DNA of 50,369 nt from Elusimicrobia bacterium RIFCSPLOWO2_12_FULL_59_9. GTDB taxonomy: Bacteria; Elusimicrobiota; Elusimicrobia; O2-12-FULL-59-9. The notes beneath the pieces were generated by a model. It was not told the DNA's origin. It ran no database searches and saw only the letters and a list, made by a program, of their open reading frames with translations. Within the stretch, counting starts at the first letter, position 1, and the number at the start of each line of letters is the position of its first letter. The stretch spans positions 1 to 50,369 of the forward strand of contig MGUX01000066.1 of assembly GCA_001800185.1 (NCBI GenBank). Reading direction: 5' to 3'. Made by a program: the position numbers and the translations under genes. Below, piece after piece: positions 5,740 through 38,566 of this stretch.

Positions 5740-5763
5740 ATATTTTTGACCGCTTATAGTATT

Positions 5764-5779
5764 TGCAACGAAATTGCCA
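5764..5779 (-). promoter_or_regulatory. Sigma54 (-24/-12) promoter P1 for resB-ccsA-hemA-radical SAM
   Basis: The minus strand reads TGGCAATTTCGTTGCA, against the consensus TGGCAC-N5-TTGCW. The -12 element lies 25 nt upstream of the resB ATG. It is identical to the promoter at 17156-17171. Confidence 0.7.
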
Positions 5780-5905
5780 CGGGGGGAGTGGGGGAGGGAA
5801 AGTGGTCGAGTGGTCCAGTGGTCGAGTGCTAGGGGGAAGAGTGTCGGGTGATAAATTGGCAGGCATGGCTGCCGCTCCGTCATCGGATCATGGAGCGTTG
5901 CGGGA
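5764..5905 (-). repeat. Copy A of a shared promoter-upstream module: sigma54 promoter, AGTGGTC octamer repeats and a 21-bp near-palindrome
   Basis: It aligns by eye with 17156-17273. Shared parts are tgcaacgaaattgcca, then ggtcgagtggtccagtggtcgagtg, then ggcatggctgccgctccgt(c/g)atcggatcatggagcgttgcggga. The near-palindrome CTCCGTCATCGGATCATGGAG is at 5875-5895. Confidence 0.8.
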
Positions 5906-5915
5906 TTGGACCCGG

Positions 5916-7274
5916 TTAATGCGAAAGTTCTTGCTCCTTCACTTCCCAGACGGTGAGGATGGGCAACAACCGGGTGAATAATAGAAAGAGCAGGGCAAAG
6001 CCGGCGAACCAGGCCGCCGTAATGGACCACTCCACCCAACTGGGGGTGTAATGGGACATTCCCCAAGAAAGGTAGGGGCGCGCCCCGCTGGGAACGATAA
6101 TGCTGTACCTTTCCAGCCACATGCCGATATTGATGACTATGCAGACCCAGGCGAGGTTGCGGACGGTTCTCAGCGGCTTGATGGCCAAGACGGGAAGGGG
6201 AATTAAGAAACAGCAGGCGAACATGGTCCAGAAAAGCCAGGCATACTCGCCAAAAAACTTGGCGTTAAAGACCGCCATGTGGGCCGTCTCGCGGCCATAA
6301 AAGGTCGTGATAAACTCCAAAAAGGTGAAGTAAAACCAGAAACAGCACAGGGCCAGCAGAAACTTCCCGATCCTATCGAAATGGTCGTCGGTAAGATAGG
6401 CGTGCAGGCGGAAGAATCTCCGGATAGCCAGCATGGCCACGATGACGGTGGCAACTCCCGAATAGATGGCGCCCACGACGAAATAGGGTCCGATCACCGC
6501 GGTGTGCCAGCCGGGCTTGGTGGTCAAGCCGAAAACAAATGAGACGTTTGTATGGACTGAGATGACAAGGCAGAATAGGAAGACCGACATTCCTCCCAAG
6601 ATTTTGTGGAGCATCTTCCATTGGGCCTTGGTTCCGGTCCAGCCCAGGGCCAATTTCCGGTAAATAAACACCCTGGCGGGATGAACCACCGTGGAAAGCC
6701 TGTCCCGGCAGAGAGCGATGTCGGGGATGAGAGCGAGATAGAAGTAAAGACATGAGGTCACCAGATAGGTCGAAATGCAGACCACATCCCACAGTATGGG
6801 CGAGGTGAAGTGGGGATAGAGCAGGACGTTCAGCAGCCGCTCCGGCCGCCCAAGGTCCACGATCACGGAACTTGCGCCAAATGGCAGGGAAAACACCGTG
6901 ATGGCCTCCGCAGCGCGGGTGAACGGTCTGCGCCACTCGGTTTCCGTGATCCGCAATATGGAGGATATCAGGGTCCCCGCATGGGAGATGCCGATAAAGA
7001 AGACGAAATTGACCAAGTAGATTCCCCAGAAGACGGGAACGTTAAGTCCCGTTACCTTAAGTCCATTTTTGACCTGCCAAGCCCAGGCTGAGAGACCCCA
7101 AAGAAAAATGCAAGCCAGGACCGCTGCCGCCAGCCAAAAACCTTTTCCTGGTTTCTCAATCAGGGGCTTGAGCATTATAGATTCCAAATTCGCCTCGCTG
7201 GACTTCGCATCCGTCCAGCCCCCTTTCCAACCAGTCAAGGTGTAATCCACATCCCCACTGCCGGGTCGCATCAC
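5916..7274 (-). CDS. NrfD/PsrC-family integral membrane quinone-interacting subunit (ACIII ActC-like)
   Basis: 452 aa with about 10 TM helices. It has the motif PVFWGIYLVNFVFFIGISHAGTLIS, shared with the paralog at 21391-22959. Its start overlaps the stop of the FeS gene. Confidence 0.85.
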   Translation of the reverse strand: MMRPGSGDVDYTLTGWKGGWTDAKSSEANLESIMLKPLIEKPGKGFWLAAAVLACIFLWGLSAWAWQVKNGLKVTGLNVPVFWGIYLVNFVFFIGISHAGTLISSILRITETEWRRPFTRAAEAITVFSLPFGASSVIVDLGRPERLLNVLLYPHFTSPILWDVVCISTYLVTSCLYFYLALIPDIALCRDRLSTVVHPARVFIYRKLALGWTGTKAQWKMLHKILGGMSVFLFCLVISVHTNVSFVFGLTTKPGWHTAVIGPYFVVGAIYSGVATVIVAMLAIRRFFRLHAYLTDDHFDRIGKFLLALCCFWFYFTFLEFITTFYGRETAHMAVFNAKFFGEYAWLFWTMFACCFLIPLPVLAIKPLRTVRNLAWVCIVINIGMWLERYSIIVPSGARPYLSWGMSHYTPSWVEWSITAAWFAGFALLFLLFTRLLPILTVWEVKEQELSH

Positions 7275-8077
7275 CCCTCCCTCAAATAAATCACTTTCGG
7301 TTTTGTCCCAAGCTCCTCCAGGAACCTGTAAGCCCTGTGGCTGTCGGCAAGCCGGGAAACCTCGCTTTCTGGATTATTGAGATCCCCAAACGCGATGGCC
7401 TGGGCCGGACAGGCCGCCTTACAGGCAGGGACGTAGTCCCTTTCTTGGATCTCACGGCCCTCCTCCCGGGCCTTGTCCCTCGCTCTTTGAAGGCGCTGAT
7501 GACAGAACAGGCATTTCTCAACCACGCCTTTGTAACGGACTGAAACATCGGGGTTGAACGACTGGTTTGCTTCCGCGGGCCATTGGGGCTCGCCCCAATT
7601 GAAGAACTTGCAGGTGTAAGGGCAGGCATTGACGCAGTATCGGCAGCCGATGCAGCGGTCGTAAACTTGCCCCACAATCCCTTCCGTGTTCATGAACGTG
7701 GCCGACGTAGGACACACCCGGGTGCAAGGAGGGTCCTCGCACTGCTGGCAAGGCATGGGGATTAAACTCTGGCGGACATGGGAGCCCTCTCCTTCGGTCC
7801 TCGGAAGTATCTTCAGCCATCGGATGACTCTGCCCATGGCGGCTTCTTCGGGACTGCCCAGCATCTGGTTGTTTTCGACGGAACAGGCTACCACGCAACT
7901 CTGGCAACCCGTACAGCGATCCAGGTCGATCACCATGCCCCAGCGGTGCTTGCCCCGGGCCTGAACGATTTCCCCTTCGCTGCCGTCGGAGGCGAAGGCG
8001 CGTGGGACAAAAACCAGAAGCCCGCCGGCGAAAGCCGCCAGCCGCTTCAATAAATTTCTTCGATTCTCAGGCTCCAT
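7271..8077 (-). CDS. Tat-exported 4Fe-4S ferredoxin-type subunit (ActB2/PsrB/NrfC-like)
   Basis: 268 aa with the twin-arginine signal ENRRNLLKRLAAFAGG. Four Cys clusters are present: CTGCQSCVVAC, CQQCEDPPC, CIGCRYCVNACP and CLFC...CKAACP. Confidence 0.9.
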   Translation of the reverse strand: MEPENRRNLLKRLAAFAGGLLVFVPRAFASDGSEGEIVQARGKHRWGMVIDLDRCTGCQSCVVACSVENNQMLGSPEEAAMGRVIRWLKILPRTEGEGSHVRQSLIPMPCQQCEDPPCTRVCPTSATFMNTEGIVGQVYDRCIGCRYCVNACPYTCKFFNWGEPQWPAEANQSFNPDVSVRYKGVVEKCLFCHQRLQRARDKAREEGREIQERDYVPACKAACPAQAIAFGDLNNPESEVSRLADSHRAYRFLEELGTKPKVIYLREG

Positions 8078-10217
8078 AGACTCTCACCCAAGTGTCCTGC
8101 CAGAGCAGTTGGCCGGAGGGGTCCTGCCGCTTCTCAACGATCCTTGCCGGACTCGTTCCGATCCCCTGGGCATACCGGCCCATGGAGGTGTGACCCAAAC
8201 CCAGGGGAAGGGACACAGTATCCTGGCGCATGCCTTCATAATGCCGTGCCCGGGCCAAGATCTTGCCGGCGGGAGACTCAACCCATACCATCTGTCGATC
8301 CGAGATGCCAAGTCTTCTCGCGGCGGCAGGATGAATCTCAACCCACGTCTCCCACTGTTCGCCCAGATGTGCCCCCGCCAAGCTGTGCAGATACGGAAGA
8401 TGCGCGCCCTCTCCGAAGGAAAAGGCCAACGGGGTATGGACGTAAAGTCGCAGGGGAAAATTGGGATATTCATGCGCAAAGGGCTTTGGCTCAATATTTT
8501 TCGTCGAAAACCGGAGCTTCCTGGATTTTGTTTTAAGAGTTGACTTAATGTCGGCTTTCGCTGCCTCGTACTCCCACCAACCTCCTTCTCGCATCTGGCC
8601 CTCGGCCTGAGCTCTTTTGGCTGATTTTTCTAAGGCTTCCACGAAAGTGCTCCAAGGCAGCGCTTTGGAGACGGGCCCGCCCAGGGAATGGGCCAAGTTC
8701 AGGATGAAATCCCCGTGGTCTTCCGTATCGTAGAGCGGCCGGAGCACGGGAGGCGCGAAGCTGATCACGCCCTGTCCCAGAAGAGTTCTCGAAAAGCCGT
8801 ACTGCCAAGACTCCAGGCTGTGGTGGGGCGGAAGGACCAAGTCCGCCAGGCGGGATGATTCATCCAGATAGGGGGAGAAACTTGCGATGAACGGAATTTT
8901 CTCCAGAGCCTTTTCCCAAGAGATGGACTGAGGGGTCGAGAAAACAGGGTTGACCCGCTCCATCCAAAAGACCTCAATAGGACTTTTTGTGGAAGCCAGG
9001 ATGGCTTCCGGAACTTGGTGCAAGGACGGCGCCAGCGGAGGTTTTGGGGGCTCGGAGGAATAGGCGGCGGGCAAGGTGAGTTGGTACCTTTCCGCCTCGG
9101 TAGCCAGGACGCCGCGGCGGACCCCGATGGAGCCCAACAGCGCGTTGAGACTATGAACAGCCGTCTGGTTAAAAAGGCTGCCCCGATAGGTGATGGCGAG
9201 GGCCGGCTGGATGCGGGCCATCTCATGAGCCAACTCTGAAATCTTTTGAGTTTTGACGCTGGTAGCCTCGGCCACCTTTTGGGGAGAATATTCCTTAAGG
9301 ACCAGGGTCTTGAACTCCTCAAAACCCGATGTCCACTGGGAAACGAAGTTCCTGTCATAGAGGTTGTCTCGGACAAGCACGTGAGCGACTCCAAGCGCCA
9401 GGAGCCCTTCCGTATCGGGTCTTATGGAGATCCACTCGTCCGACTTGGCGGCCGTGGTTGAAAGTCTGGGCTCAACCTGGATGATCCGCACTCTCCTTTC
9501 AGGCCTGGCTCGGCGAAGCTCGCTGAAGGCCCTTTGAGCCTCGACCGGTGAAGGGAAGCTCTGCAGCCAGTCCCAGCCGAAAGACACGAGAAGGTTTGCG
9601 TTTTGTAGATCATAGAAGAGGCCCTCCGAAGAGCCGTGCATCATTTTGAAAGCGTCCAAAGGGGCCTCCGCCAACGGCCAGTTCCACTCCCAGAAGTTGG
9701 GCGTCCCGAAGAGCCGTGCAAAACGCTCTTGGATATCGTGCCTGATATCCCGGATGGGCGCCGCCAATACGGCCAACGCCTCCGGCGCATTGCGCCTTAA
9801 GAGGTCTGACAGCTTATCGTGGAGTATCTGATGCGCCTTACTCCAGGGGATTCTTTCCCACTGGCCGGAACCCCTTGGGCCCTTTTGGAGCAGGGGAAAA
9901 CGCAACCGGTCCGGATGGTAGAGGTCCTGAAGGATTGCTCCGCCCTTGGGGCAGTGCGTCCCGAGGCTTACGGGATGGCCGGACATCCCCGAGATTCCCA
10001 CAGCCTTGCCGTTCACGACGCGAACTTGAAGCATGCAGAGGGCCGGACAGAGTTTGCAGAGGGCGGGCTTGTAGGCCTCGGAGTCCAATTTGGGAAGAGG
10101 CTTTTCCTTGGGGGTCAACACCTTGGCTTTGAGGGCCTTGGGAAGGGCAAGCGCCGCGGTTAAAAAGCTTCCCCACTTCAAGAAGTTCTTTCTGGAAATT
10201 TCTATTTCCATAGACAT
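8067..10217 (-). CDS. Molybdopterin-oxidoreductase-like large subunit (ActB1/PsrA-like), Tat signal
   Basis: 716 aa with the signal SRKNFLKWGSFLTAALALP. The N-terminal FS0 motif CKLCPALC...HCPKG (C-x2-C-x3-C...C) is present. Whether a pterin cofactor is retained cannot be judged by eye. Confidence 0.85.
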   Translation of the reverse strand: MSMEIEISRKNFLKWGSFLTAALALPKALKAKVLTPKEKPLPKLDSEAYKPALCKLCPALCMLQVRVVNGKAVGISGMSGHPVSLGTHCPKGGAILQDLYHPDRLRFPLLQKGPRGSGQWERIPWSKAHQILHDKLSDLLRRNAPEALAVLAAPIRDIRHDIQERFARLFGTPNFWEWNWPLAEAPLDAFKMMHGSSEGLFYDLQNANLLVSFGWDWLQSFPSPVEAQRAFSELRRARPERRVRIIQVEPRLSTTAAKSDEWISIRPDTEGLLALGVAHVLVRDNLYDRNFVSQWTSGFEEFKTLVLKEYSPQKVAEATSVKTQKISELAHEMARIQPALAITYRGSLFNQTAVHSLNALLGSIGVRRGVLATEAERYQLTLPAAYSSEPPKPPLAPSLHQVPEAILASTKSPIEVFWMERVNPVFSTPQSISWEKALEKIPFIASFSPYLDESSRLADLVLPPHHSLESWQYGFSRTLLGQGVISFAPPVLRPLYDTEDHGDFILNLAHSLGGPVSKALPWSTFVEALEKSAKRAQAEGQMREGGWWEYEAAKADIKSTLKTKSRKLRFSTKNIEPKPFAHEYPNFPLRLYVHTPLAFSFGEGAHLPYLHSLAGAHLGEQWETWVEIHPAAARRLGISDRQMVWVESPAGKILARARHYEGMRQDTVSLPLGLGHTSMGRYAQGIGTSPARIVEKRQDPSGQLLWQDTWVRVYGA

Positions 10218-10234
10218 ATCTTCATTGACGGCGC

Positions 10235-10744
10235 CTACCTATGGCACGCCATACAATCCGTAGTTATTTTTTCGCGCCTATGGCAGGCCATGCATCCTTC
10301 CATTCGGAGAGGCACGGTCTGTCTCGCCACGGGCCTGTCCATCTTTCCGACATCCCCGTGGCAGACCTTGCAGTCCAGGCCGCCCGACCCCACATGGCGC
10401 TTGTGGGAGAACCGGACGTGCTGCGGAACCGTATAGACCTTTTTCCATGGGATTTCCCGCATCTGCCGGATGTATTCCTCCAAAGTTTTTGGGGTTTTGA
10501 GGCCGGGTTTGTCAGGTTGATGGCACAAGGCGCAGGTGGAGGTGTTCGGGATGCCGGCTTTCGCGGAGTCCTTAGCCCCCACGTGGCAGGCGTCGCAAGA
10601 GATACCGAAGTCCACGTGCTTTTTATGGGTGAAGGGCACTGGCTGTGAGACCTCCCACGTCCTGTATGCCGACAAACCTATCCCCGCAATTCCCGCAGCT
10701 ACGACCATCCAACCGAGCCAAGCGTGCAGCCACTCCCGCGGCAT
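10235..10744 (-). CDS. Membrane-anchored pentahaem cytochrome c (ACIII ActA-like, cytochrome c3/c7 family)
   Basis: 169 aa with one N-terminal TM helix. Five CxxCH motifs are present (CDACH, CALCH, CKVCH, CMACH, CMACH). It is a paralog of 25818-26318. Confidence 0.85.
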   Translation of the reverse strand: MPREWLHAWLGWMVVAAGIAGIGLSAYRTWEVSQPVPFTHKKHVDFGISCDACHVGAKDSAKAGIPNTSTCALCHQPDKPGLKTPKTLEEYIRQMREIPWKKVYTVPQHVRFSHKRHVGSGGLDCKVCHGDVGKMDRPVARQTVPLRMEGCMACHRREKITTDCMACHR

Positions 10745-10771
10745 CCAATCCTCCCCAAGCTACGCCGTTGC

Positions 10772-11677
10772 TTATCTGACCGACTCTACCGCTTTTTCCG
10801 CCTTTCCCGGACCGGAGCCCTTGGTTGGGGCAAACTCCTTGGCCAAGGATGTCAACCCCGTCATAGCCCCAAGGCCCATCGTCTCCACCGCGCTGGACGG
10901 CACTATCACCACCGTGGAGTTCTGCCGCATTCCTTCCAGGAGGATGTTCATGGCCCTCAGGTGCAGAGCCACGGGACTCTCTACGTACGAATTGGAGGCT
11001 TCCTTGAACTTATTGGCTACCTGGAGTTCCGATTCAGCCAGAATCACGCGCGCCTGGCGCTCCCGCTCCGCCTGAGCCTGCATGGACATGGCGTCTTGGA
11101 GCCCCACCGGGATTTTCACGTCCCGGATTTCCACAGAAAGCGCCTTAATGCCCCAGGCTTCCGTGCGCTCATCAATCATCTGGCAGAGCTTCGCGTCGAT
11201 CTTCCGCCGTCCGATCAGCATTTCAGAAAGATCCGTCTCTCCGATCATGTCTCGCAACGCCGTCTGGGACGACCAGGAGATCGCCTCCTTGTAGTTTTCA
11301 ACCTCCAAGGCCGCTTTCACCGGGTCCATAACCCTCCAAAAAAGCACCGCATCCACGTCCACGGGCACGCTGTCTTTGGTCAGGGTCTCCTCCGCGGTGA
11401 AGGGCGTCGTGATCGTCCTTAGGTCAATCCAATAGGGGATCGTATCGAAGAAAGGAAAGACTCCGAACAAGCCCGGCCCCCGCAAGCGGTGGAACCTGCC
11501 AAGCCTTAGCACCACAGCCTTCTGCCATTGACGGGCCACCCGCAGAGATATGACCCCGAAGAGTCCCGTGGCTGCTCCTATCAATGCTGCCAGCGGGGTG
11601 CCAAGCCAAGCGCTGACCAATCCTCCGGTGACCGCCAAAACAACGAACAGGCTTAGCGTCATTGGGTGAATACCCAT
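10772..11677 (-). CDS. SPFH/band-7 (stomatin/prohibitin-like) membrane scaffold protein
   Basis: It has N-terminal TM helices, then WQKAVVLRLGRF...VDVDAVLFWRV...AQAERERQARVILAE. I prefer the ATG at 11677 (MGIHPM), 9 nt after AGGAGG; the ORF track starts at 11686. It is about 80% identical by eye to 26356-27249. Confidence 0.9.
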   Translation of the reverse strand: MGIHPMTLSLFVVLAVTGGLVSAWLGTPLAALIGAATGLFGVISLRVARQWQKAVVLRLGRFHRLRGPGLFGVFPFFDTIPYWIDLRTITTPFTAEETLTKDSVPVDVDAVLFWRVMDPVKAALEVENYKEAISWSSQTALRDMIGETDLSEMLIGRRKIDAKLCQMIDERTEAWGIKALSVEIRDVKIPVGLQDAMSMQAQAERERQARVILAESELQVANKFKEASNSYVESPVALHLRAMNILLEGMRQNSTVVIVPSSAVETMGLGAMTGLTSLAKEFAPTKGSGPGKAEKAVESVR

Positions 11678-11697
11678 GTCATGCACCTCCTATTTTC

Positions 11698-14114: not shown

Positions 14115-14130
14115 GGCAACACATTGGCCA
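14115..14130 (-). promoter_or_regulatory. Sigma54 promoter P2 for the cyc2-like/ACIII-like operon
   Basis: The minus strand reads TGGCCAATGTGTTGCC. It lies 44 nt upstream of the ATG at 14071 and about 90 nt downstream of the response-regulator stop. Confidence 0.6.
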
Positions 14131-14218
14131 GGAATTTTTTGCCTCTGGCCGCGATAAAACGGATTTAACAGGCAAATGCTTCCAATTTCTTGGAAAGAGG
14201 TTTTAAGTTGTTGAAAAC

Positions 14219-15580
14219 CTAGCGGAAGGACTGGGGGTTGATTTGGTGCTTCTTGAGATACCAGTAGAGGTTGCTCAGGGGAAGTCTTGCCGTTTCTGCG
14301 GTGGTCTTGACGTTGCCGCCGTGCTTCTTGAGGAGGGATTCCAGGTACTCTTTCTCAAAACTTGCCCTCAAGGAGAAAAAGTTCTCCGTCCCCTTTTCCA
14401 TGCCGTTGGAGTTTGTCACCAAGAACTCCGGAAGATCCGTGGCTTTGAGGGTGTCTCCTTCGCAAACGACCACGGACTTTCTAAGGACGTTCTGGAGTTC
14501 CCGGATGTTTCCGGGCCAGCTATAATGCGCCAGAATCTCAACGGCCGAGTCATCCAGCCGCGTAACCGGCCGGCGCATTTCTTTGGCGATTTTGGGAAGG
14601 TAGTGCTGCGCCAGAAGGGAAACATCCTCAGCCCTCTCCCGAAGCGGGGGGAGGCGGAGGGAGATGACGTTGAGCCGGTAAAAGAGATCCTCCCGGAATC
14701 TGCCCGCCTTGATTTCTTGCTCGATATCCTTGTTGGTGGCCGTGACGATGCGGACATCGACCGAACGGATTTCGGCGCCGCCGACCCGGCGAAACTGCTT
14801 CTCCTGAAGCGCCCTCAGAAGCTTGGCCTGAAGGGAGCCGGGAAGTTCGCAGACCTCATCCAGAAAGAATGTGCCGCCATCGGCGAGTTCCATGAGCCCC
14901 TGAGCGGCCCGGGATGCGTCCGTGTAAGCGCCCTTTTCATGGCCAAAAAATTCGTTCTCAAGCAGATTTTCAGGAATCGCCCCGCAATCCACGGGGATGA
15001 AGCGGCCCCGCCTGCCGGAACGAAGATGCAGCCGCCGGGCGATCAGTTCCTTGCCGGTCCCGGACTCGCCCAAAATCAAAACATCCGCAGGAGTCGCGGC
15101 CACCCTGTCCGCCATATCCAAAACCCTGAGGATGGCCGGGCTCCGGCCGATGACCTCCACGGGCGCATATTCTCTGGACACATGGCGGGCCAAGAGCCGG
15201 TTCTCCTCCCCAAGTTGTTTCTCCCGCAAGGCGCGGCGGATCTTTGAGGCAAAATCCTCCGGGTGAAAGGGCTTAAGAAGATAATCCAAGGCTCCAGCCC
15301 GCAAAGCCTCCAGGGCCGAATCCAACTCCGGGAAGGCGGTGATCAAAAGAACGGGGAAAGCCGGGTCCATCTCCTTGGCGGCTTTCAGGAGCTCTATGCC
15401 GCTTAGTTTCGGCATCTTGATGTCCGTGACGAGCAGATCGAAGTTCTGCGCTTTGAGCTTTTCGAGAGCAACGGGCGAGCGATTCTCCAAAAACACCTGA
15501 TAGCCGTCCTTGGAAAGGGCGGCCGCGCAGGTGGACAACATGTCAGGCTCGTCGTCTACGATCAGCACTTTATATTTCAT
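14219..15580 (-). CDS. Sigma54-dependent response regulator (NtrC family bacterial enhancer-binding protein)
   Basis: 453 aa. It has a receiver domain (VLIVDDEPDM...TDIKMP). The AAA+ domain carries Walker A GESGTGKE and the sigma54-contact loop GHEKGAYTDA (a GAFTGA variant). A C-terminal HTH is also present. Confidence 0.95.
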   Translation of the reverse strand: MKYKVLIVDDEPDMLSTCAAALSKDGYQVFLENRSPVALEKLKAQNFDLLVTDIKMPKLSGIELLKAAKEMDPAFPVLLITAFPELDSALEALRAGALDYLLKPFHPEDFASKIRRALREKQLGEENRLLARHVSREYAPVEVIGRSPAILRVLDMADRVAATPADVLILGESGTGKELIARRLHLRSGRRGRFIPVDCGAIPENLLENEFFGHEKGAYTDASRAAQGLMELADGGTFFLDEVCELPGSLQAKLLRALQEKQFRRVGGAEIRSVDVRIVTATNKDIEQEIKAGRFREDLFYRLNVISLRLPPLRERAEDVSLLAQHYLPKIAKEMRRPVTRLDDSAVEILAHYSWPGNIRELQNVLRKSVVVCEGDTLKATDLPEFLVTNSNGMEKGTENFFSLRASFEKEYLESLLKKHGGNVKTTAETARLPLSNLYWYLKKHQINPQSFR

Positions 15581-17155: not shown

Positions 17156-17171
17156 TGCAACGAAATTGCCA
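17156..17171 (-). promoter_or_regulatory. Sigma54 promoter P3 for the kinase/regulator operon
   Basis: The minus strand reads TGGCAATTTCGTTGCA, identical to P1. It lies 29 nt upstream of the ATG at 17127. Confidence 0.7.
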
Positions 17172-17273
17172 TATAGGGGAAAGTGTTCGAGTGGTCCAGT
17201 GGTCGAGTGGTAGAGTGGTCCATTACGGCGGCATGGCTGCCGCTCCGTGATCGGATCATGGAGCGTTGCGGGA
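17156..17273 (-). repeat. Copy B of the shared promoter-upstream module
   Basis: It contains four tandem AGTGGTC-N octamers (17185-17216 region). The near-palindrome CTCCGTGATCGGATCATGGAG is at 17243-17263. It aligns with 5764-5905. Confidence 0.8.
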
Positions 17274-17283
17274 AAAGCAGCGC

Positions 17284-18561
17284 TCAAGCCGCGTCCCGGA
17301 AGTTTCCATGCCACACAGTCTTCGACTCAATATTCATGGCGGCAGACTCGCGCGGTGTAAGCTGCCCGGTCAGCACCGGGATGGTCATCTTCAGCAATAT
17401 AGTATAGAGCAGCATCCCGAAGCCCCATATCCCGGCGCAAATCAGCCATTCGTTGAGGGTCGGGAAGTACTCGACTATCTCGCCCAGGGGGCTGGGGATG
17501 AAGGCCGGGATAACCATGCCCATCCCCTTCTCGATCCAAATGCCCACGATGGCCAGCACACAAGCCAAGCTCAGGTATCTTAGACGGCGCGAGAACGGCA
17601 GCACCAGCAGGATGAGGGCCGCCGAATCGAGAACCATGGCTGTCCATATCCAAGGCACGAGGCCGTAGTGGCCGTGGAGGCCGAAGAATAAGTACTTGGC
17701 CGAGGCCACATGGGCTGAGTCGGTATAGAATTCCTTAAAAAGCTCGCAAAGCAAGAGGAAGACATTGATGATCATCGAGACCTGAACGATGTCCCGGAGC
17801 ATGAAGAGCGCCTTGTCAGTGACCTTGTAGGAGGACAGGCGGCGGATGACTTGCAAGGTCAGAATGAGGAAGCCCGGTCCGGCCGTGAAGGCCGAGGCCA
17901 AGAAACGCGGGGCCACGATGGCTGAGTTCCAGAAAGGCCGCCCCCCCAGGCCGACATAGAGAAATGCCGTCACGGTATGGATGCTGATAGCCCAGAACAT
18001 GGCGATGAAAACGAAGGGGATGTACCAGATTTTGGCCGGCTTGCGCTTGAGATACACCATATAGACCAAGTAGCCGGAGATTTGGACGTTCAGGGCCAGG
18101 TAGCCGTTGAGGACGATGACGTCCCAGCTCAGCATGGAGATGGGCCAATTAAACTTGCCGATCCCCGGAATCATATGCCAGAACCGGTCCGGGCGGCCCA
18201 GGTCCGCGGTGACGAAGAGCAGGCACATAACGATGACCGCCACGGCCAAGAGCTCGCCGAATATGACCACGTCGTGCAGCGTCTCGTCTTTGTAGACATA
18301 GACCGGCACCACCAGCATCACCGCGGCCGCCGCCATCCCCACAAGGAAGGTGAAGTTGGCGATATAGAGTCCCCAGGAGACCTGGTCGCTCATGCCGGTG
18401 ACGGTGAGGCCGGCGACGAGCTGCTTGCAGTAGGCGTTGAGCCCCAGAAGGGACACGGCTGTCAGTGCCGTCATCCATAGGTAGTAACGCCAATCCCCGT
18501 CGAGGGTCTTGCGGGCGCAGCGCCCGACGAATACCGCGTAGTCCTTGATGGCTTGGGTCAT
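17284..18561 (-). CDS. NrfD/PsrC-family membrane subunit (DsrP/HmeB/ActF-like)
   Basis: 425 aa with about 10 TM helices. The N-terminal pattern GLTVTGMSDQVSWGLYIANFTFLVG matches the NrfD-type first helices. It follows its FeS partner after a 2-nt gap. Confidence 0.85.
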   Translation of the reverse strand: MTQAIKDYAVFVGRCARKTLDGDWRYYLWMTALTAVSLLGLNAYCKQLVAGLTVTGMSDQVSWGLYIANFTFLVGMAAAAVMLVVPVYVYKDETLHDVVIFGELLAVAVIVMCLLFVTADLGRPDRFWHMIPGIGKFNWPISMLSWDVIVLNGYLALNVQISGYLVYMVYLKRKPAKIWYIPFVFIAMFWAISIHTVTAFLYVGLGGRPFWNSAIVAPRFLASAFTAGPGFLILTLQVIRRLSSYKVTDKALFMLRDIVQVSMIINVFLLLCELFKEFYTDSAHVASAKYLFFGLHGHYGLVPWIWTAMVLDSAALILLVLPFSRRLRYLSLACVLAIVGIWIEKGMGMVIPAFIPSPLGEIVEYFPTLNEWLICAGIWGFGMLLYTILLKMTIPVLTGQLTPRESAAMNIESKTVWHGNFRDAA

Positions 18562-20917: not shown

Positions 20918-21394
20918 TTAATCGGGGTTTGGAGGTCTTGATTGGTTTGCGAACAAATCTTTGAGTTTTTCCTGCTGAGCCTGGAATTCGCCCTGCTTTA
21001 AGATTTTCCTGACCTTGGAATCGTAGGTGAGAAAGTCCATGATCCTTTCCTCATCCGCCTTGCTCAATTCGATTCCGCGGCCTTTCATCTTGAGATGCAT
21101 CCTGCGCACATAGCGCTTCCAGACGTCCGCCTCCATGTACGGAGAGTTCAGGGGACGCGCCGTCGTATGGCAGGAGCCGCAGACGCCCAGGAAGAACCGG
21201 TAATTCGCCTTCTGATTCTCGGGGTAGCCGGACACGTCCACGGTGGGGGAGCCCAGGTCGTAGTAAAACGGCGGGACGGCCTTTGCGGAGGCAGCCGGGT
21301 TCTTCGGCGAGGGGGATTCTTCTTTTCCGCCGCAGGCCGCCAAGGAGAGCCCCGCAAGAAGGAGGACGATGAGGCCCGACGTTCGTATCCTCAT
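20918..21394 (-). CDS. Small monohaem cytochrome c lipoprotein, family copy 2 (ActE-like position)
   Basis: The ORF track extends to 21637, but ATG 21394 overlaps the upstream stop (ATGA). That start gives MRIRTSGLIVLLLAGLSLAAC with the lipobox LAAC. The core is YPENQKANYRFFLGVCGSCHTTARPLNSPY...FLTYDSKVRK. Confidence 0.75.
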   Translation of the reverse strand: MRIRTSGLIVLLLAGLSLAACGGKEESPSPKNPAASAKAVPPFYYDLGSPTVDVSGYPENQKANYRFFLGVCGSCHTTARPLNSPYMEADVWKRYVRRMHLKMKGRGIELSKADEERIMDFLTYDSKVRKILKQGEFQAQQEKLKDLFANQSRPPNPD

Positions 21395-22959
21395 GATGGG
21401 AAATAGGTGCGGATTCTCGCCACGACTTCCCCCTCGGCCTGCTCCTTTCCCTCCCGCACCTCCCAAATGGAGACGATGGGGAACACTCGGGTAAACATCG
21501 CATAGAGCATGACAAACGTCGAGATGCATCCCGCGAAGAGCGATATCTCCACCCAACTGGGCGTGTAGCCGCCGGTCGTATAGGGCAGCCGGGGTCGGAT
21601 CAAAGTGGGCACCACGATCAGAAATCTCTCCAGCCACATGCCCACGATCACAGTCGATGAAGCGATCACCGTCCCTCGGACCGTCTTCCCCAAGGGGGAG
21701 ACCAGGACGCCGAAGGGAACTACGAAGCAGGTGACGGCCATCAGCCAGAATGCGGGAGCGTAGGGCCCGCTGATCTTCAAGTTAAAGATCACCATGTGCT
21801 CGGGCTCGCCGCCGTACCAGGTCGTCAGGTATTCGGAGAACGTGAAGTAGAACCAGAGGCAGCACATCACCAGCAAGAGCTTGCCTAGATTCTCGAAGTG
21901 TATCGCCCGGAGATGGTTCTCCAGGCCATAGCCCTTGCGGAGCACCGCCATGGCGATGATGAGCGCCGCGATCCCCGAGAAGATGGCGCCGACCACGAAG
22001 TAGGGGCCAAAGATGGTCGAGTGCCACATCGGCTGGACCGTCATGCTGAAGACGTAGGAAACCACCGTGTGGACGCTGACGGCGACGGGAATCACCAGGA
22101 TGGCCATGATGGCGATGCATTTCTCCAACACTTCCCGTTCCTCGTGGCTGCCGCTCCAGTTCAAAGAAAGCAACTCGTAAAGGGGCTTGCGCCAGCCTTG
22201 AGCGCGGTCTCTGAGGATGGCGATGTCCGGGATAAGGGGAAGGTAGAGATAGAGGGTGCTGCCGATAAGATAGGTGGTGATGCTGCAGACGTCCCACATC
22301 AGCGGCGATTGAAAACGGCCTGCAAGAAAGACGTTAAGAGCGCGATCGGGACGGCCCAGATCAAGGATGATGTTGCCCGCCCCGAAGACGAGTACTAGGA
22401 CCGTGATCACCTCCGCCGAACGCGTGATGGAGCGCCGCCACTCCGCCTGGACGATCCTGAGTATGGCTGAGATCAGCGTTCCCGCGTGCGAGATGCCGAT
22501 GAAAAAGACGAAATTGGTGATGTAGAATCCCCAAAAGACCGGATTATTGAGACCCGTCACCGCGAGCCCGTAATACATCTGGTAGCACCAGGCGAAGATC
22601 GCCCAAAGGCTCACGCAGGTCAGGACCGCCATGGTCGCGAGGAATCCCCCCGTGGGCGCTTCGAAGATGGGGGCCACCAGGACTTCCTCCTCAGGGAATA
22701 TCTCCAGGGGGGCGGGGCTTTTTCCGCTTTTTGTTTTCCGCAACGCGATCTTGAAGAAAAGACGGGAGATGATCCAGGAAAGGATGATGAAGATGGGGCC
22801 GATGATGCTGCCCATGACCACGGCCGGCAGCCAGGCGTCGCCGAGCCGGTACGACGCGGCGGCGCGCCAGACGAACCAGCCGTTGGCCGCGACCGCGAAC
22901 GCGCAGAAGCCGGCGAAGCCCGCAAGCTGAACGTAAAAGGTCCAGTTCCTTGGTCTCAT
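21391..22959 (-). CDS. NrfD/PsrC-family membrane subunit (ActC-like) with an extra N-terminal roughly 110-aa TM extension
   Basis: 522 aa. From NPVFWGFYITNFVFFIGISHAGTLIS onward it is collinear with 5916-7274. The extra N-terminal segment holds 2-3 hydrophobic helices. Confidence 0.85.
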   Translation of the reverse strand: MRPRNWTFYVQLAGFAGFCAFAVAANGWFVWRAAASYRLGDAWLPAVVMGSIIGPIFIILSWIISRLFFKIALRKTKSGKSPAPLEIFPEEEVLVAPIFEAPTGGFLATMAVLTCVSLWAIFAWCYQMYYGLAVTGLNNPVFWGFYITNFVFFIGISHAGTLISAILRIVQAEWRRSITRSAEVITVLVLVFGAGNIILDLGRPDRALNVFLAGRFQSPLMWDVCSITTYLIGSTLYLYLPLIPDIAILRDRAQGWRKPLYELLSLNWSGSHEEREVLEKCIAIMAILVIPVAVSVHTVVSYVFSMTVQPMWHSTIFGPYFVVGAIFSGIAALIIAMAVLRKGYGLENHLRAIHFENLGKLLLVMCCLWFYFTFSEYLTTWYGGEPEHMVIFNLKISGPYAPAFWLMAVTCFVVPFGVLVSPLGKTVRGTVIASSTVIVGMWLERFLIVVPTLIRPRLPYTTGGYTPSWVEISLFAGCISTFVMLYAMFTRVFPIVSIWEVREGKEQAEGEVVARIRTYFPS

Positions 22960-23783
22960 GCTCCTTCCTTCAAATAGGTCACTTTGGGTTCGGCGCCCAG
23001 TTCTTCCAAAAGATGGAAGGCGCGGGGGTCCTTGGAGAGGTTGGCCGCGTCGCTGTCGTTGTTATTGAGATCCCCGAAGACGATGGCTTTCGCGGGACAA
23101 ATCTCCGCGCAGGCGGGCTGGTAATCATTTTCCCGCAGTGGCCGTCCCTCCGCCACAGCTTCCTCCTTGGCCCGTTGCAGGCGATGGTGGCAGAAGAGGC
23201 ACTTCTCAACCACGCCTTTGGGACGAATCGAGACGTCGGGATTAAAGGAGGCCTGCATCTCCTTCGGCCAGACCGGCGCTTTCCAGTTGAAGTCCTTGCA
23301 GGTGTAGGGACAGGCGTTGAGGCAGTAGCGGCAGCCGATGCAGCGCGAATAGACCTGGCCCACGATCCCTTCCTCGTTGCGAAACGTGGCGTAGACCGGG
23401 CACACCTTGGTGCAGGGGGGGGTGTCGCATTGCTGGCAGGGCATGGGCAGAAGCCTCTGCTTCGGCGCGGGAAACTCCCCCTCCTGAGAGGGAAGAATCT
23501 TGAGCCAACGGATGATCCTGCCCATCGCGGCTTCTTGAGGGTTTCCCAATGCCAGGTTGTTTTCCGTGGAGCATGCCACCACGCAGGAGCCGCACCCGGT
23601 GCACTTGTCCAGATCGATCACCATCCCCCAACGGTGCTCCCCCGGCTTGAGAGGCCTCTTGCCATGCCCCGCATCCCCAGGCGCGGTCCCCCACGCTTTG
23701 CCGATTCCACTCAGTAAGAACACGCCGAGAGTTCCAAGGAGACCCCGAAGGAATCCGTTGCGAGAGGTCGTCAAGCTTTCCAT
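22956..23783 (-). CDS. 4Fe-4S ferredoxin-type subunit (ActB2-like), paralog of 7271-8077
   Basis: 275 aa with the same four Cys-cluster pattern (CTGCGSCVVAC, CQQCDTPPC, CIGCRYCLNACP, CLFC...CAEICP). The Tat motif is degenerate (SRNGFLRG). Confidence 0.9.
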   Translation of the reverse strand: MESLTTSRNGFLRGLLGTLGVFLLSGIGKAWGTAPGDAGHGKRPLKPGEHRWGMVIDLDKCTGCGSCVVACSTENNLALGNPQEAAMGRIIRWLKILPSQEGEFPAPKQRLLPMPCQQCDTPPCTKVCPVYATFRNEEGIVGQVYSRCIGCRYCLNACPYTCKDFNWKAPVWPKEMQASFNPDVSIRPKGVVEKCLFCHHRLQRAKEEAVAEGRPLRENDYQPACAEICPAKAIVFGDLNNNDSDAANLSKDPRAFHLLEELGAEPKVTYLKEGA

Positions 23784-25813
23784 AGCTTCACCTCGGTCCC
23801 TTCCTCGCCTATCTCCAACGGGTTGGAGCCCAAGCCCTTGGCCCAGCGTCCGTAGCCGGCATGTCCCAATCCAACGGGGAGGCTGACCACTCCGGGCATG
23901 GCCGCCCGGGACAGACGCGCCCTGGCCTTGATCTTCCCTCTCCGGGATTCGACCCAGATCGCTTCTCCGTCCGATAGCCCCGGAAGCGAAGCGGTTTCAG
24001 GGTGCATCTCCGCCCAGGTCTCCCACGCCTCCTGCGTCTGAGGTCCCGCGACGCTTTGCAGATAGGGGAGATGCGCGCCCTCTCCGAAGGAAAAGGCGAG
24101 GGGCGCGTAAAGGTGCAGATGGAGAGGAAACCCCCCGTCCTCCCGCGCCTTTTTAACGTCCTGCAGTTTCAAAATGTCCGTCAATGCGTCGAACTCAAAC
24201 TTTCCCGAGCGGGTCGCATGGGGCTTGCCGGAGGCAGCAGCGCTCATCTCCCGCCAGATCTTTCCCCCGCTGCTTTCATGGAACATCTTTTCTGCCCGCA
24301 GTTTCTTCATATGGCCCATGACGTAGGAGTCAAAATCCGCTGGAACTCTCGTCCCAGCCAAAGCTCGCGTCAACGCCAGGAATATATCCCCGGGGTCCTT
24401 GGTCGCGTAGAGCGGCGCCACCGCTTCGGGGGCGGCGCCCAAGACCGCGCTCCCGTTCGCGGACACATGGAAAGAACAGTGGCCTCTTTCCAGGGGCGTG
24501 TGGCAGGGCAACACGAGATCGGAAGATAGCGCCGTCTCGTTTAGAAAAGAAGAGACCGTCGCCACAAAGGGCGTTTTCGCCACGATCTCTTTCCATCCCG
24601 ACGGCGACAGAAAGAGAGGATCGACACGATCGACCAGAAGCAGTTCCGGCGGCCGCGCCTGGAGACTTTGGTCGGCCAAGCCGTCCGCCCAAAAGCCTTC
24701 CCGTCCCTCCATCCCTGAGAATACGCCCCCCGTGCCGATGTTCCCCAAGAGGGCGTTGAGCGCGTGGACTGCCATCTGGGTCAGCAACGGCCCGCGGTTG
24801 GTGATGGCTGCCGCGGGTTTGAGGCTGGAGAGCTTGACCGCCAGCAAACGGATCTCCTTTTCGGGGACTTCCGTTGTCTTTGAAACATCATCAAGAGAAA
24901 GGGCGTCCAGGCTCTTTTTGAAGGCCTCGAAACCCCGGGACTGCGCGTGGATGAAGGCCTTGTCGTAGGTCTCATTGGCGATCAACTGCTTGGCCAGGAT
25001 CAACGCCAGAAGACCTTCCGTCCCGGGCCGGACGGGTACCCATTGGTCCGCCTTGCCCGCGGTCACGGAGAACCTCGGCTCGATCTGGACGATTTCGGCG
25101 CGGTCTCGAGACGGCCCTCGCCGAAGCTGCGCGAAAGCCATCTGCGCCTCGACCGGAGACGGGTAGGACTGGAGCCAGTCGAATCCAAAGGAGACCAGGA
25201 GCTTTGCGCGGCTCATGTGGAAAGCCACTCGGCGGCTTCCATGCATTCTCTCGTAAGCGTCGCTGGGAAACTCAGACTTGGGAAAGCCTAGGGCGAAAAA
25301 ATTATCCTTGCCTATGGAATCGGCCAAGCCCCGGAGCGCCTCGCCTTGTATGTCCCACGCCCGCGCCCGCGTTAGCGCGGCCAGCGGCTTAATCTTGCTC
25401 CCTGACTTCGCGCGGGTGATCTTCTCCGAGAGGGCGCGCAGGGCCTCATCCCAGGAGATCTCTTTCCACTCCCCGGATCCACGGGGGCCGCGTCTGAGCA
25501 GGGGAGTCCTCAGTCGATCTGGATGGTAGAGCTCTTGCAGGGAGGCCGCGCCCTTGGGACAGAGCCCGCCCTGATTGATCGGATGATCCGGGATCCCCGA
25601 GATTCCGACGGCATGGCCGTCGACCTTGCGCACGCGGATGCCGCAGCCCGCCGGACACAACCCGCAGATGGTGTAGGCGAAGCCCTCTTCCCCCATGGGC
25701 GGCGGCGCGTCTTCCTTGGGCGTGAGCACCGCCTTCTTGGCCCAGACCGGCAAGGCGGAGGTCAAGCCAGAGAAAATGCCGAACTTGAAGAAATTTCTTC
25801 GGGATATTTCCAT
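23771..25813 (-). CDS. Molybdopterin-oxidoreductase-like large subunit (ActB1-like), paralog of 8067-10217
   Basis: 680 aa with the Tat signal ISRRNFFKFG. The FS0 motif CGLCPAGC...LCPKG is present, and the protein is collinear with the 716-aa paralog. Confidence 0.85.
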   Translation of the reverse strand: MEISRRNFFKFGIFSGLTSALPVWAKKAVLTPKEDAPPPMGEEGFAYTICGLCPAGCGIRVRKVDGHAVGISGIPDHPINQGGLCPKGAASLQELYHPDRLRTPLLRRGPRGSGEWKEISWDEALRALSEKITRAKSGSKIKPLAALTRARAWDIQGEALRGLADSIGKDNFFALGFPKSEFPSDAYERMHGSRRVAFHMSRAKLLVSFGFDWLQSYPSPVEAQMAFAQLRRGPSRDRAEIVQIEPRFSVTAGKADQWVPVRPGTEGLLALILAKQLIANETYDKAFIHAQSRGFEAFKKSLDALSLDDVSKTTEVPEKEIRLLAVKLSSLKPAAAITNRGPLLTQMAVHALNALLGNIGTGGVFSGMEGREGFWADGLADQSLQARPPELLLVDRVDPLFLSPSGWKEIVAKTPFVATVSSFLNETALSSDLVLPCHTPLERGHCSFHVSANGSAVLGAAPEAVAPLYATKDPGDIFLALTRALAGTRVPADFDSYVMGHMKKLRAEKMFHESSGGKIWREMSAAASGKPHATRSGKFEFDALTDILKLQDVKKAREDGGFPLHLHLYAPLAFSFGEGAHLPYLQSVAGPQTQEAWETWAEMHPETASLPGLSDGEAIWVESRRGKIKARARLSRAAMPGVVSLPVGLGHAGYGRWAKGLGSNPLEIGEEGTEVKLWKA

Positions 25814-25817
25814 TTCG

Positions 25818-26318
25818 TTACTTATGGCAAGCCAGGCAGTCGTTGGTCACCTTCATCCTGTGGTGGCAGCCCATACAGCGCGCCATGCTGATAGTCACCG
25901 CTTGCCGCGTGACCGGCGCCTCCACCTTGGACATGTCGCCGTGACAGAGGGCGCAGTCCAGTTTGGCTAACCCCACGTGCCTGCGGTGGGAAAAATAGAC
26001 GTGGGTCGGCACGTTGTAGACCTTCTTCCAGGGGATCGGCTTGTTGGCCGAGACATAGTCGCGCACGGCTTTGGCTCTTGGATTTTCGTCATCGGAGGTG
26101 TGGCAGGCCGCGCAGACCTCCACCGTGGGAAGCCCTCCGCGCGCCTTCCCATCAGCGATGCCTGTGTGGCAGCCGGCGCACTCCAATCCCAGGGCGATGT
26201 GCTTCTTGTGGTTGTAAGCGACGGGTTGTTTTTTAGATCCCGACTGGTAACCGGCCAGCAAAAGCCAGACGAGGCCGATGAAGGCTAGGGACAAAACGGC
26301 CGCCGCAAGGTCTTTCAT
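25818..26318 (-). CDS. Membrane-anchored pentahaem cytochrome c (ActA-like), paralog of 10235-10744
   Basis: 166 aa with an N-terminal TM helix. Five CxxCH motifs are present (CAGCH, CAACH, CALCH, CMGCH, CLACH). Confidence 0.85.
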   Translation of the reverse strand: MKDLAAAVLSLAFIGLVWLLLAGYQSGSKKQPVAYNHKKHIALGLECAGCHTGIADGKARGGLPTVEVCAACHTSDDENPRAKAVRDYVSANKPIPWKKVYNVPTHVYFSHRRHVGLAKLDCALCHGDMSKVEAPVTRQAVTISMARCMGCHHRMKVTNDCLACHK

Positions 26319-26355
26319 CTATTTCCTTTTGCCGCAAGATGAAGTTCATTCCCGC

Positions 26356-27249
26356 CTACGGCGTTGAGGAAGCCGAGCCTCCCTTGACTCCAGGGTCGCC
26401 CGCGTACTCTTTGGCCAAAGAGGTAATTCCGGTCATGGCTCCTAGACCCATGGTTTCCACGGCGCTGGAGGGAACGACCACGATGGTGGAGCTCTTCCGC
26501 ATTCCTTCCAAAAGAATGTTCATGGCGCGAAGGTGAAGCGCGACGGGGCTATTGACGTAGGCCTTGGAAGACTCCTCAAAGACCTTCGAAACCTGTCGCT
26601 CCGACTCCGCCAAAATAACCCTGGCTTGTCGCTCCCTTTCCGCTTGAGCCTGCATGGACATCGCGTTCTGCAGGCTTGAAGGGATTTTCACATCACGGAT
26701 CTCCACTGACAGAGCCTTGATGCCCCAGACCTCCGTTCGCTGCTCGATCATCTCGCAAAGGTCCTTGTCGATTTTTTCTCTTCCCCGGAGCATTTCCGAG
26801 AGGTCGGTTTTGCCGATTACGTCCCGCAGGGCGGTCTGGCTGGACCAAGCAATGGCCTGCTGGTAATCCTCCACTTCGAGGGCCGCCTTCTTAGGATCCA
26901 CCACCCGCCAGAAAAGCACCGCGTCCACGTCCACCGGCACGCTGTCCTTGGTCAATGTTTCTTCCGCGGTAAAGGGGGTGGTGATCGTCCTCAAATCTAT
27001 CCAGTAGGGGATGGTATCCACGAAGGGAATGACGCCGAATAGGCCCGGCCCCCGCAGATCGTGGAACTTTCCCATCCGGAGGATCACCGCCTTCTGCCAT
27101 TGGCGCGCGACGCGCACGGCCAAAAAGAACAAGATGGCGAAAAGCGCGATGGCGGCCCCTACGGTTGGATTTTCGAATCGGACGCTCAACGCTCCCCCCG
27201 CGGCAAGCATCAAAACAAACAAAAGCACCGTAAATGGATGGATTCCCAT
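26356..27249 (-). CDS. SPFH/band-7 membrane scaffold protein, paralog of 10772-11677
   Basis: 297 aa. The RBS AGGAGG lies 7 nt upstream of the ATG. The sequence is nearly collinear with the first copy. Confidence 0.9.
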   Translation of the reverse strand: MGIHPFTVLLFVLMLAAGGALSVRFENPTVGAAIALFAILFFLAVRVARQWQKAVILRMGKFHDLRGPGLFGVIPFVDTIPYWIDLRTITTPFTAEETLTKDSVPVDVDAVLFWRVVDPKKAALEVEDYQQAIAWSSQTALRDVIGKTDLSEMLRGREKIDKDLCEMIEQRTEVWGIKALSVEIRDVKIPSSLQNAMSMQAQAERERQARVILAESERQVSKVFEESSKAYVNSPVALHLRAMNILLEGMRKSSTIVVVPSSAVETMGLGAMTGITSLAKEYAGDPGVKGGSASSTP

Positions 27250-33687: not shown

Positions 33688-33703
33688 TGGCAAGGTTGTT
33701 GCA
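33688..33703 (+). promoter_or_regulatory. Sigma54 promoter P6 for the monohaem lipoprotein gene
   Basis: The plus strand reads TGGCAAGGTTGTTGCA, 46 nt upstream of the ATG at 33749. Confidence 0.6.
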
Positions 33704-38550: not shown

Positions 38551-38566
38551 TGGCAATTTTGTTGCA
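38551..38566 (+). promoter_or_regulatory. Sigma54 promoter P8 upstream of feoB
   Basis: The plus strand reads TGGCAATTTTGTTGCA, 14 nt after the cytochrome stop and 126 nt upstream of the feoB ATG. Confidence 0.6.

Follow-up and report, generated by a model that had tools for sequence, protein, structure and literature searches.

A predicted sigma-54 promoter cassette shared by a cytochrome c maturation operon and a two-component system operon in an uncultured Elusimicrobia lineage

Two operons of the Elusimicrobia bacterium RIFCSPLOWO2_12_FULL_59_9, one headed by resB and followed by ccsA, hemA and a radical SAM gene, the other encoding a histidine kinase and a response regulator, are preceded by nearly the same sequence. 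Do they answer to the same control, and is the regulator encoded in the second operon the protein that exerts it? An earlier note on this DNA, made from the letters alone, had proposed that the shared upstream region links the two operons, that the regulator encoded nearby acts on it, and that the two-component system thereby regulates both itself and the resB operon. We examined these proposals in the window, by which we mean the whole 50,369-nt stretch of contig MGUX01000066.1, and in related loci from genomes and metagenome assemblies.

The window is a respiratory island with two Mo-oxidoreductase/FeS/NrfD clusters, a Rieske/cytochrome b complex, an MtrB/PioB-type porin and FeoB, and it is driven by at least five predicted sigma-54 promoters. 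In our ORF and Pfam reading of the window (Table 1), the minus strand carries every gene near the modules upstream of the P1 and P3 promoters, in the transcription order NrfD-B cluster, P3, kinase, regulator, 424-aa gene, NrfD-A cluster, P1, resB. The paralogous Mo-oxidoreductase cluster, the Rieske/cytochrome b genes, feoB, a gene for a DtxR-type repressor, and the porin with its multihaem cytochromes lie elsewhere in the window. Neither rpoN nor a second enhancer-binding protein was found among the genes of the window. By its kinase homologues the organism belongs with groundwater Elusimicrobia. Several groundwater and soil metagenomes contain near-identical contigs, and in a strain-level comparison the module sequence was invariant in all of them. 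Some features of this setting stand apart from the promoters. The Band7/cytochrome c7/Mo-oxidoreductase/FeS/NrfD clusters at 5916-11686 and 21391-27249 are paralogous, with ~71–74% DNA identity over long stretches; in the cluster at 21391-27249 the NrfD is longer and is followed by a 158-aa lipoprotein-like gene. At 37644-38516 there are three tandem 291-nt repeats, 64–75% identical to the reference copy, of which a three-domain cytochrome c gene (37557-38537) is built. In contig L001 (6851-8128), NrfD-B was called in two pieces (212 and 210 aa) between identical neighbour genes, which represents either a frameshift/stop variant or an assembly error.

Table 1. Coordinates of the genes, promoters and upstream elements discussed in the text (positions refer to the window unless a locus is named)
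Feature	Position	Strand	Description
NrfD-B	18561-17284	-	ends the multihaem cytochrome/FeS/NrfD cluster; stop 17284-17286; Pfam NrfD
P3 block 1 with dyad	17230..17273	.	dyad 17241-17265, core 17243-17263
P3 patch from NrfD-A	17209..17236	+	inverted match to 6036-6009 coding strand, 26/28
P3 array	17177..17221	-	~5 units, 8-52 bp upstream of -24 G
P3 core TGGCAATTTCGTTGCA	17156..17171	-	same as P1; 28 nt upstream of kinase ATG 17127
Histidine kinase	17127-15577	-	HisKA and HATPase_c matches from ATG 17127; PilS-like membrane domain
NtrC-family response regulator	14219-15580	-	receiver, sigma-54 AAA+ domain, marginal Fis-type HTH
Tandem dyads	14180..14216	.	TTCCAAGAAATTGGAA 14180-14195 perfect; TTTCAACAACTTAAAA 14201-14216 degenerate
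Dyad pairs at orthologous loci	L004 12881-12917; L005 14109-14144; L006 10908-10945; L142 3849-3885; L144 6831-6867
P2 promoter TGGCCAATGTGTTGCC	14115..14130	-	upstream of 424-aa gene and Mo-oxidoreductase/FeS/NrfD cluster A; outside the module
424-aa hypothetical protein, then small cytochromes	3' of regulator gene in transcription order	-
Band7/cytochrome c7/Mo-oxidoreductase/FeS/NrfD-A cluster	11686-5916	-	NrfD-A stop 5916-5918; Pfam NrfD
Donor segment in NrfD-A	6009..6036	-	encodes VEWSITAAW
P1 block 1 with dyad CGCTCC-GTCATCGGATCAT-GGAGCG	5862..5905	.	dyad 5873-5897, 21-nt core 5875-5895
P1 array	5796..5832	-	~4 units, 19-55 bp upstream of -24 G
P1 core TGGCAATTTCGTTGCA (GG-N10-GC)	5764..5779	-	24 nt upstream of resB ATG 5739
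resB, then ccsA, hemA, radical SAM/SPASM gene	resB 5739-4633	-	ResB Pfam match, start 5739

The regions upstream of resB (P1, 5764-5905) and of the kinase gene (P3, 17156-17273) shared three blocks in a mosaic of homology. Block 1 was identical at 43 of 44 positions (5862-5905 vs 17230-17273, E 8e-18). Block 2, the octamer array, was identical at 32 of 33 (5796-5828 vs 17177-17209), with the variant units included and in register, and block 3, the core promoter, at all 16 (5764-5779 and 17156-17171). The two spacers between the blocks could not be aligned between P1 and P3 and differ in length (29 vs 16 nt and ~17 vs 7 nt). At one end the homology begins 10 nt past the NrfD stop codons, and at the other it stops exactly at the -12 element. 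The two flanking NrfD paralogues have only 27% residue identity, compared to 97–100% identity in the three blocks. The homology proposed in the earlier note was thus confirmed, as was its observation that both copies sit right after the stop of an NrfD-family gene; the identical core promoter lies just outside the range that it gave for the P1 copy (5780-5905). The P1 spacer between array and promoter (5780-5795) is C-rich on the transcribed strand (CCCTCCCCCACTCCCCCC) and is not present in P3; a variant of this G-rich/C-rich spacer was present in one related strain.

Motif, spacing and placement support P1 and P3 as predicted sigma-54-dependent promoters, with the GG at -24 and the GC at -12 of the TGGCAC-N5-TTGCW consensus at the fixed 10-nt spacing. 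The pattern TGGCA-N7-TGCA had four matches in the window (0.54 expected), all of them correctly oriented just before genes, and P2, located after the regulator gene, is a fifth promoter of sigma-54 type. On the plus strand, a match at 33688-33703 (TGGCAAGGTTGTTGCA) precedes an operon with a multihaem cytochrome and the MtrB/PioB-type porin, and another at 38551-38566 (TGGCAATTTTGTTGCA), which is identical to the P1/P3 core at 15 of 16 positions, precedes feoB. Upstream of these two promoters we found no palindrome, no octamer array and no TTCCAA dyad.

Predicted sigma-54-type promoters at these positions are not confined to this genome. Orthologues of the kinase with 61–65% identity (L004, L006, L142 and L144) have GG-N10-GC promoter-like motifs upstream, with other sequences. 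In L004-L006 and L142-L144, synteny was kept downstream of the kinase, the upstream context was different, and the module was not present. In the closest distinct relative, whose kinase is 65% identical (L143 151-741 / L142 200-800), a transposase-like gene (HTH_32) lies directly upstream of the kinase sigma-54 promoter, so that the native sequence has been replaced there. On the resB side, low-coverage contigs of a related strain could be aligned through the P1 promoter before resB and on into a spacer variant and the start of the array, with ~4 differences from P1 that fall somewhere within the last 30 nt (5754-5783), their individual positions being unplaced. More distant Elusimicrobia resB genes have either a sigma-70-like sequence (TGATATAAT) or no intergenic region. 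In L006 (19222-19285), a sigma-54 promoter (TGGCGGTTTTGTTGCT) is located 25 nt or less past the stop of the NrfD-A orthologue, and judging by its first residues the gene it would drive looks NuoE-like and not like resB. A promoter at that position predates its present cargo.

We lean, with only slight preference over doubt, towards the reading that a single sigma-54 promoter cassette came to stand before both operons by copying, which would bring them under the shared control of another factor. The cassette would comprise, in order, the 44-nt block that contains the 25-nt dyad, then a few 8-bp units in tandem, and finally the -24/-12 core, with one cassette before resB-ccsA-hemA-radical SAM and a second before the kinase/regulator operon. 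Copying would have occurred long after the flanking NrfD genes diverged, and the homology for the transfer may have come from octamer arrays that the two loci had beforehand. With the same sigma-54 promoter and the same upstream context, both operons would be expected to respond to the same input. In this account the homology, the sigma-54 motifs, the dispersal of the array, the lack of block 1 at the NrfD-B stop of a related strain and the conserved P2 dyads are what we observe, whereas we infer that a protein binds the dyad, that the operons are co-regulated, and in which direction and by what mechanism the cassette was copied. At ~3% divergence and with two replaced spacers, the two copies could be identical because they were copied recently, and not because of selection.

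The most distinctive part of the cassette is the palindrome of block 1. The pattern CTCCGT(C/G)ATCGGATCATGGAG was found exactly twice in the window, compared to 0.01 occurrences expected, and it widens to a 25-nt dyad (CGCTCC...GGAGCG). The dyad centres are 5885 at P1 and 17253 at P3. Measured from the -24 G they lie 108 and 84 bp upstream, respectively, near the ~105 and ~85 bp reported for the 21-bp near-palindrome in the earlier note. In agreement with that note, the dyad (at -108/-132) is placed as an enhancer would be, within the 80–150 bp expected for one. Relative to the promoter, the two dyads are offset by 24 bp (2.3 helical turns), so they would not lie on the same helix face. To our knowledge, the dyad does not fit FNR, CRP, Fur or DtxR-type boxes. 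Its position and symmetry are most simply read as those of a putative site for a dimeric DNA-binding protein, and the leading candidate for the binder is an enhancer-binding protein encoded outside the window.

Searching for further copies, as the earlier note had suggested, showed that the palindrome is not dispersed: in the metagenome assemblies there were two copies only. When block 1 was searched in five metagenome runs (X1-X5), the reciprocal copy was the sole match, and the exact palindrome had no match in 185,579 species genomes. A degenerate form gave 58 matches in JGI metagenome contigs, which represented a few unrelated loci with 21–23 nt in common and with no sigma-54 motif nearby. 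The palindrome was also absent from the orthologous loci L004, L005, L006, L142 and L144. In a relative in which the 3' end of NrfD-B is 83% identical, only 4 nt separate the array from the NrfD-B stop, and block 1 is missing. In a relative with 93% identical NrfD-A, the 20 nt visible past the common post-stop sequence do not match block 1. Block 1 is young, being specific to this species and located at exactly two sites. The arrays are older than block 1 at these loci, and so, probably, is the sigma-54 control. Because relatives do without block 1, it is not needed for these promoters there, and it could be neutral or otherwise used.

A different role for block 1 would be that of a REP-like hairpin at the 3' ends of the NrfD operons, affecting mRNA stability or acting in weak termination or insulation, and unrelated to the promoters downstream. 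The location of both copies 10 nt past a stop codon would suit such a hairpin, as would the folding of the isolated dyad on the transcribed strand (-13.7 kcal/mol for P3, z -4.0; -9.9 kcal/mol for P1) and the fact that relatives have promoter and array without block 1. We nevertheless consider this rather unlikely. As an intrinsic terminator the element was rejected, since the hairpin is followed by GCAGCCAUGCC with no U tract, and a terminator scan gave no site at either module. As a structured RNA it was rejected as well: the fold of block 1 in context was not significant (z ~ -1.5) and differed between the copies, the one position at which the P1 and P3 blocks differ disrupts a base pair without compensation, and no Rfam family was matched at gathering thresholds anywhere in the window. 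Also, two copies are all that there are, unlike in REP families.

The earlier note had instead taken the palindrome as the enhancer of the regulator encoded at 14219-15580, which would through it autoregulate its own operon and co-regulate resB-ccsA-hemA. This is the sole enhancer-binding protein encoded in the window, and it has the sigma-54 AAA+ domain as well as a Fis-type HTH of marginal score; the position of the dyad is typical for enhancers, and sigma-54-type promoters are also found at the kinase orthologues. We regard this assignment as unlikely, however, because of what is conserved among the orthologues and what is not. The C-terminal recognition helix of the regulator (SNLYWYLKKH) is nearly invariant in orthologues at 69–72% identity, so the DNA site should be conserved too, but the palindrome was found in none of the orthologous loci. 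All six loci (the window, L004, L005, L006, L142 and L144) have, in the short intergenic stretch directly behind the regulator gene, two TTCCAA-N4-TTGGAA dyads that are 20–21 bp apart and centred 49–61 and 70–81 bp upstream of a sigma-54-type -24 G (59 and 80 bp in the window, at P2). In some loci one dyad of the pair has an N5 spacing or is degenerate. Each locus has a single perfect 16-nt dyad, located at that site in every case, with the exception of L006, where both dyads have mismatches. Such a layout is typical of a tandem enhancer. No TTCCAA-N4-TTGGAA dyad was found at P1 or P3. The outer half-sites of the palindrome resemble those of the P2 dyads (CTCCA-N11-CGGAG for the palindrome, TTCCA-N6-TGGAA for the P2 dyads) but are 11 and 6 nt apart, respectively, so one dimer could not read both.

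With a conserved site at P2 and a palindrome that the orthologues lack, the palindrome would need another binder. The TTCCAA-N4-TTGGAA pair is a probable candidate enhancer of the local regulator, which most likely drives P2 and, through P2, the neighbouring cluster. What stands of the link claimed between the resB-ccsA-hemA-radical SAM genes and the kinase/regulator operon is the pair of homologous sigma-54 regions; the local regulator as the binder, and with it the autoregulation and co-regulation through the palindrome, are not borne out by the comparison. A TAAAYC-like element is conserved between the dyads and the P2-type promoter. The sigma-54 contact motif of the regulator (14915-14932, residues 217-222) reads GAYTDA in place of the canonical GAFTGA, and orthologues keep GAYTDA or GAFTDA, so that in this clade the loop in contact with sigma-54 has a conserved G-to-D change.

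Part of the P3 copy gave a clue to how the two copies came about. Positions 17213-17232 are the exact reverse complement (20/20) of 6013-6032, which lie inside NrfD-A, and the longer match around them (Table 1) includes NrfD-A's own third-codon positions of this genome. The edges of this patch are microhomologies, GAGTGGTCC of the array and CCAxGCC of block 1. The donor stretch is located inside an encoded SWVEWS motif that is conserved in NrfD-A orthologues, which argues that the coding copy is the original. The patch is most likely a template-switch scar between nearby inverted sequences, and since the NrfD-A donor is only ~180 nt from the P1 array, the switch would most simply have occurred at the P1 locus. 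The resB locus is the probable source of the copying and the kinase locus the recipient, since P3 carries the NrfD-A patch and NrfD-A adjoins the P1 copy. If transcription of NrfD-B read through into P3, the RNA would be antisense to the NrfD-A mRNA.

A further reading is that only the -24/-12 core matters. Block 1 and the array would then have been carried along by an ectopic gene conversion between two loci that each had an octamer array before, and their identity would be a sign of recency and not of function. This would be in keeping with the ~3% divergence of the blocks and with the two discrete segment replacements, one of them the template-switch patch, as well as with the dispersal of the arrays, which relatives have at both loci, and with a block 1 that is lineage-specific. 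We think it quite improbable, as the copy ends exactly at the functional edge of the promoter and begins right past a stop codon, and a near-perfect 25-nt dyad, with 0.01 expected, is unlikely in neutral sequence.

The octamer array behaved differently from block 1. Its unit reads AGTGGTCG on the plus strand and GACCACTC-like on the minus strand. Tandem Repeats Finder returned a period of 8 with 3.5 copies at 5801-5828 and 4.9 copies at 17182-17220, in agreement with the tandem 8-bp units described in the earlier note, and no further such array in the window. At least seven further contigs of the same metagenomes carry the array, some of them in longer form, between flanks that are unrelated and often AT-richer. 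The depth of these contigs (2.8–6.6x) is similar to that of the target contigs (3–8x), and from this similarity only, all array copies would belong to one genome. Metagenome runs with related strains have at least five array loci each, and one locus was recognisably orthologous between strains. The visible 30-nt flanks of the other arrays contained no sigma-54 motif, and the loci fetched from other Elusimicrobia contained no array. The octamer array is a member of a dispersed family and is not specific to these promoters. The possibility raised earlier, that the shared element is a common dispersed repeat without promoter association, is in part true of the array, with its seven or more further loci, and is not true of the palindrome block. 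The number of units was unchanged in L001-L003, L141 and contigs of four runs, which is a weak test of variation because contigs hide rare variants. Since imperfect units stay in register between the copies, they point to inheritance and not to active slippage. At these two promoters the array is plausibly, at most, a putative site for an architectural or global factor where the DNA bends between enhancer and promoter, such bending being of help in sigma-54 activation.

A more far-reaching role for the arrays, which we offer as a long shot, would be that of genome-wide landing sites for an architectural or global DNA-binding protein and of recombination anchors through which whole cassettes of dyad and sigma-54 core are copied, an effect of which would be that the two-component system was rewired onto the control of cytochrome maturation, with RNA cross-talk between NrfD-B and NrfD-A as a by-product. 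If this were true, the 26/28 complementarity of the NrfD-B read-through RNA would allow RNA-RNA cross-talk between the respiratory clusters. We find it barely credible that the module is a small mobile element with a promoter on it, in the manner of the Correia elements of Neisseria: its size of ~100–140 bp and the 6-bp inverted repeat at its ends (GCAACG...CGTTGC) would fit, but it has only two full copies with block 1 nowhere else in the five metagenome runs, the 185,579 genomes and the JGI contigs, its flanks have no target-site duplication, and no terminal inverted repeat extends beyond the 6 bp.

The upstream elements that promoters have in common provide a first sketch of regulatory wiring in an uncultured lineage of groundwater Elusimicrobia, in which the local regulator probably acts on P2, and a separate, common cassette precedes the two-component system as well as the genes for haem synthesis and cytochrome c maturation. 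The case illustrates how promoter sequence can be copied from one operon to an unrelated one, and it gives an example, outside Geobacter, of a dispersed family of octamer arrays. Among the by-products, the candidate enhancer at P2 (TTCCAA-N4-TTGGAA), which is well supported, seems to us the most useful. Current understanding is not overturned, and the value of the analysis lies in a testable regulatory map, together with the caution that the nearest regulator need not belong to the nearest palindrome.

The closest known counterparts of P1 and P3 are sigma-54 promoters with upstream activator sequences, such as those of NtrC at glnAp2, DctD at dctA and NifA at nifH. The resemblance lies in the GG-N10-GC core, the dyad ~80–140 bp upstream, the NtrC-family two-component system nearby, and the intervening segment, at which IHF-like architectural proteins act in those systems. 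In contrast to the tandem sites usual there, each promoter here has a single dyad, and the conserved site of the nearby regulator is at P2. Imperfect palindromes right after stop codons also recall REP/BIME elements, from which block 1 differs in having two copies, no dispersal and no significant conserved RNA structure in context.

For the array, several precedents can be compared. Direct repeats with an 8-bp period are known as operators of ribbon-helix-helix repressors (the metboxes of MetJ, the ACTC boxes of ParG), and PilR binds tandem direct repeats; the unit here shares the period and has ACTC on the minus strand, and the kinase has a PilS-like membrane domain. Tandem short units near promoters are also known from cyanobacterial STRR heptamer arrays and from promoter microsatellites of Neisseria and Haemophilus. 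The arrays here are likewise intergenic and close to promoters, but their copy number does not vary among metagenome assemblies, and their units are imperfect and in register. The units described as 8-bp tandem repeats for OmpR-type regulators have a 3-bp linker and thus an 11-bp period (PMC3353115), whereas the units here are contiguous. The nearest likeness is to Geobacter metallireducens, where hepta- or octanucleotide units stand three to five in tandem and form dispersed, species-specific families (classes 1-3, for example GTTGCTYN x4), proposed as sites for IHF/HU or a global regulator (PMC2700814). The unit here is different (AGTGGTCG), and the arrays at P1 and P3 are single and not paired on opposite strands, but the two systems have in common four to five units of 8 nt, a spread over many loci (here seven or more further ones in the same metagenomes, and none in related loci), some in intergenic sequence and others beside or within genes, and restriction to one species.
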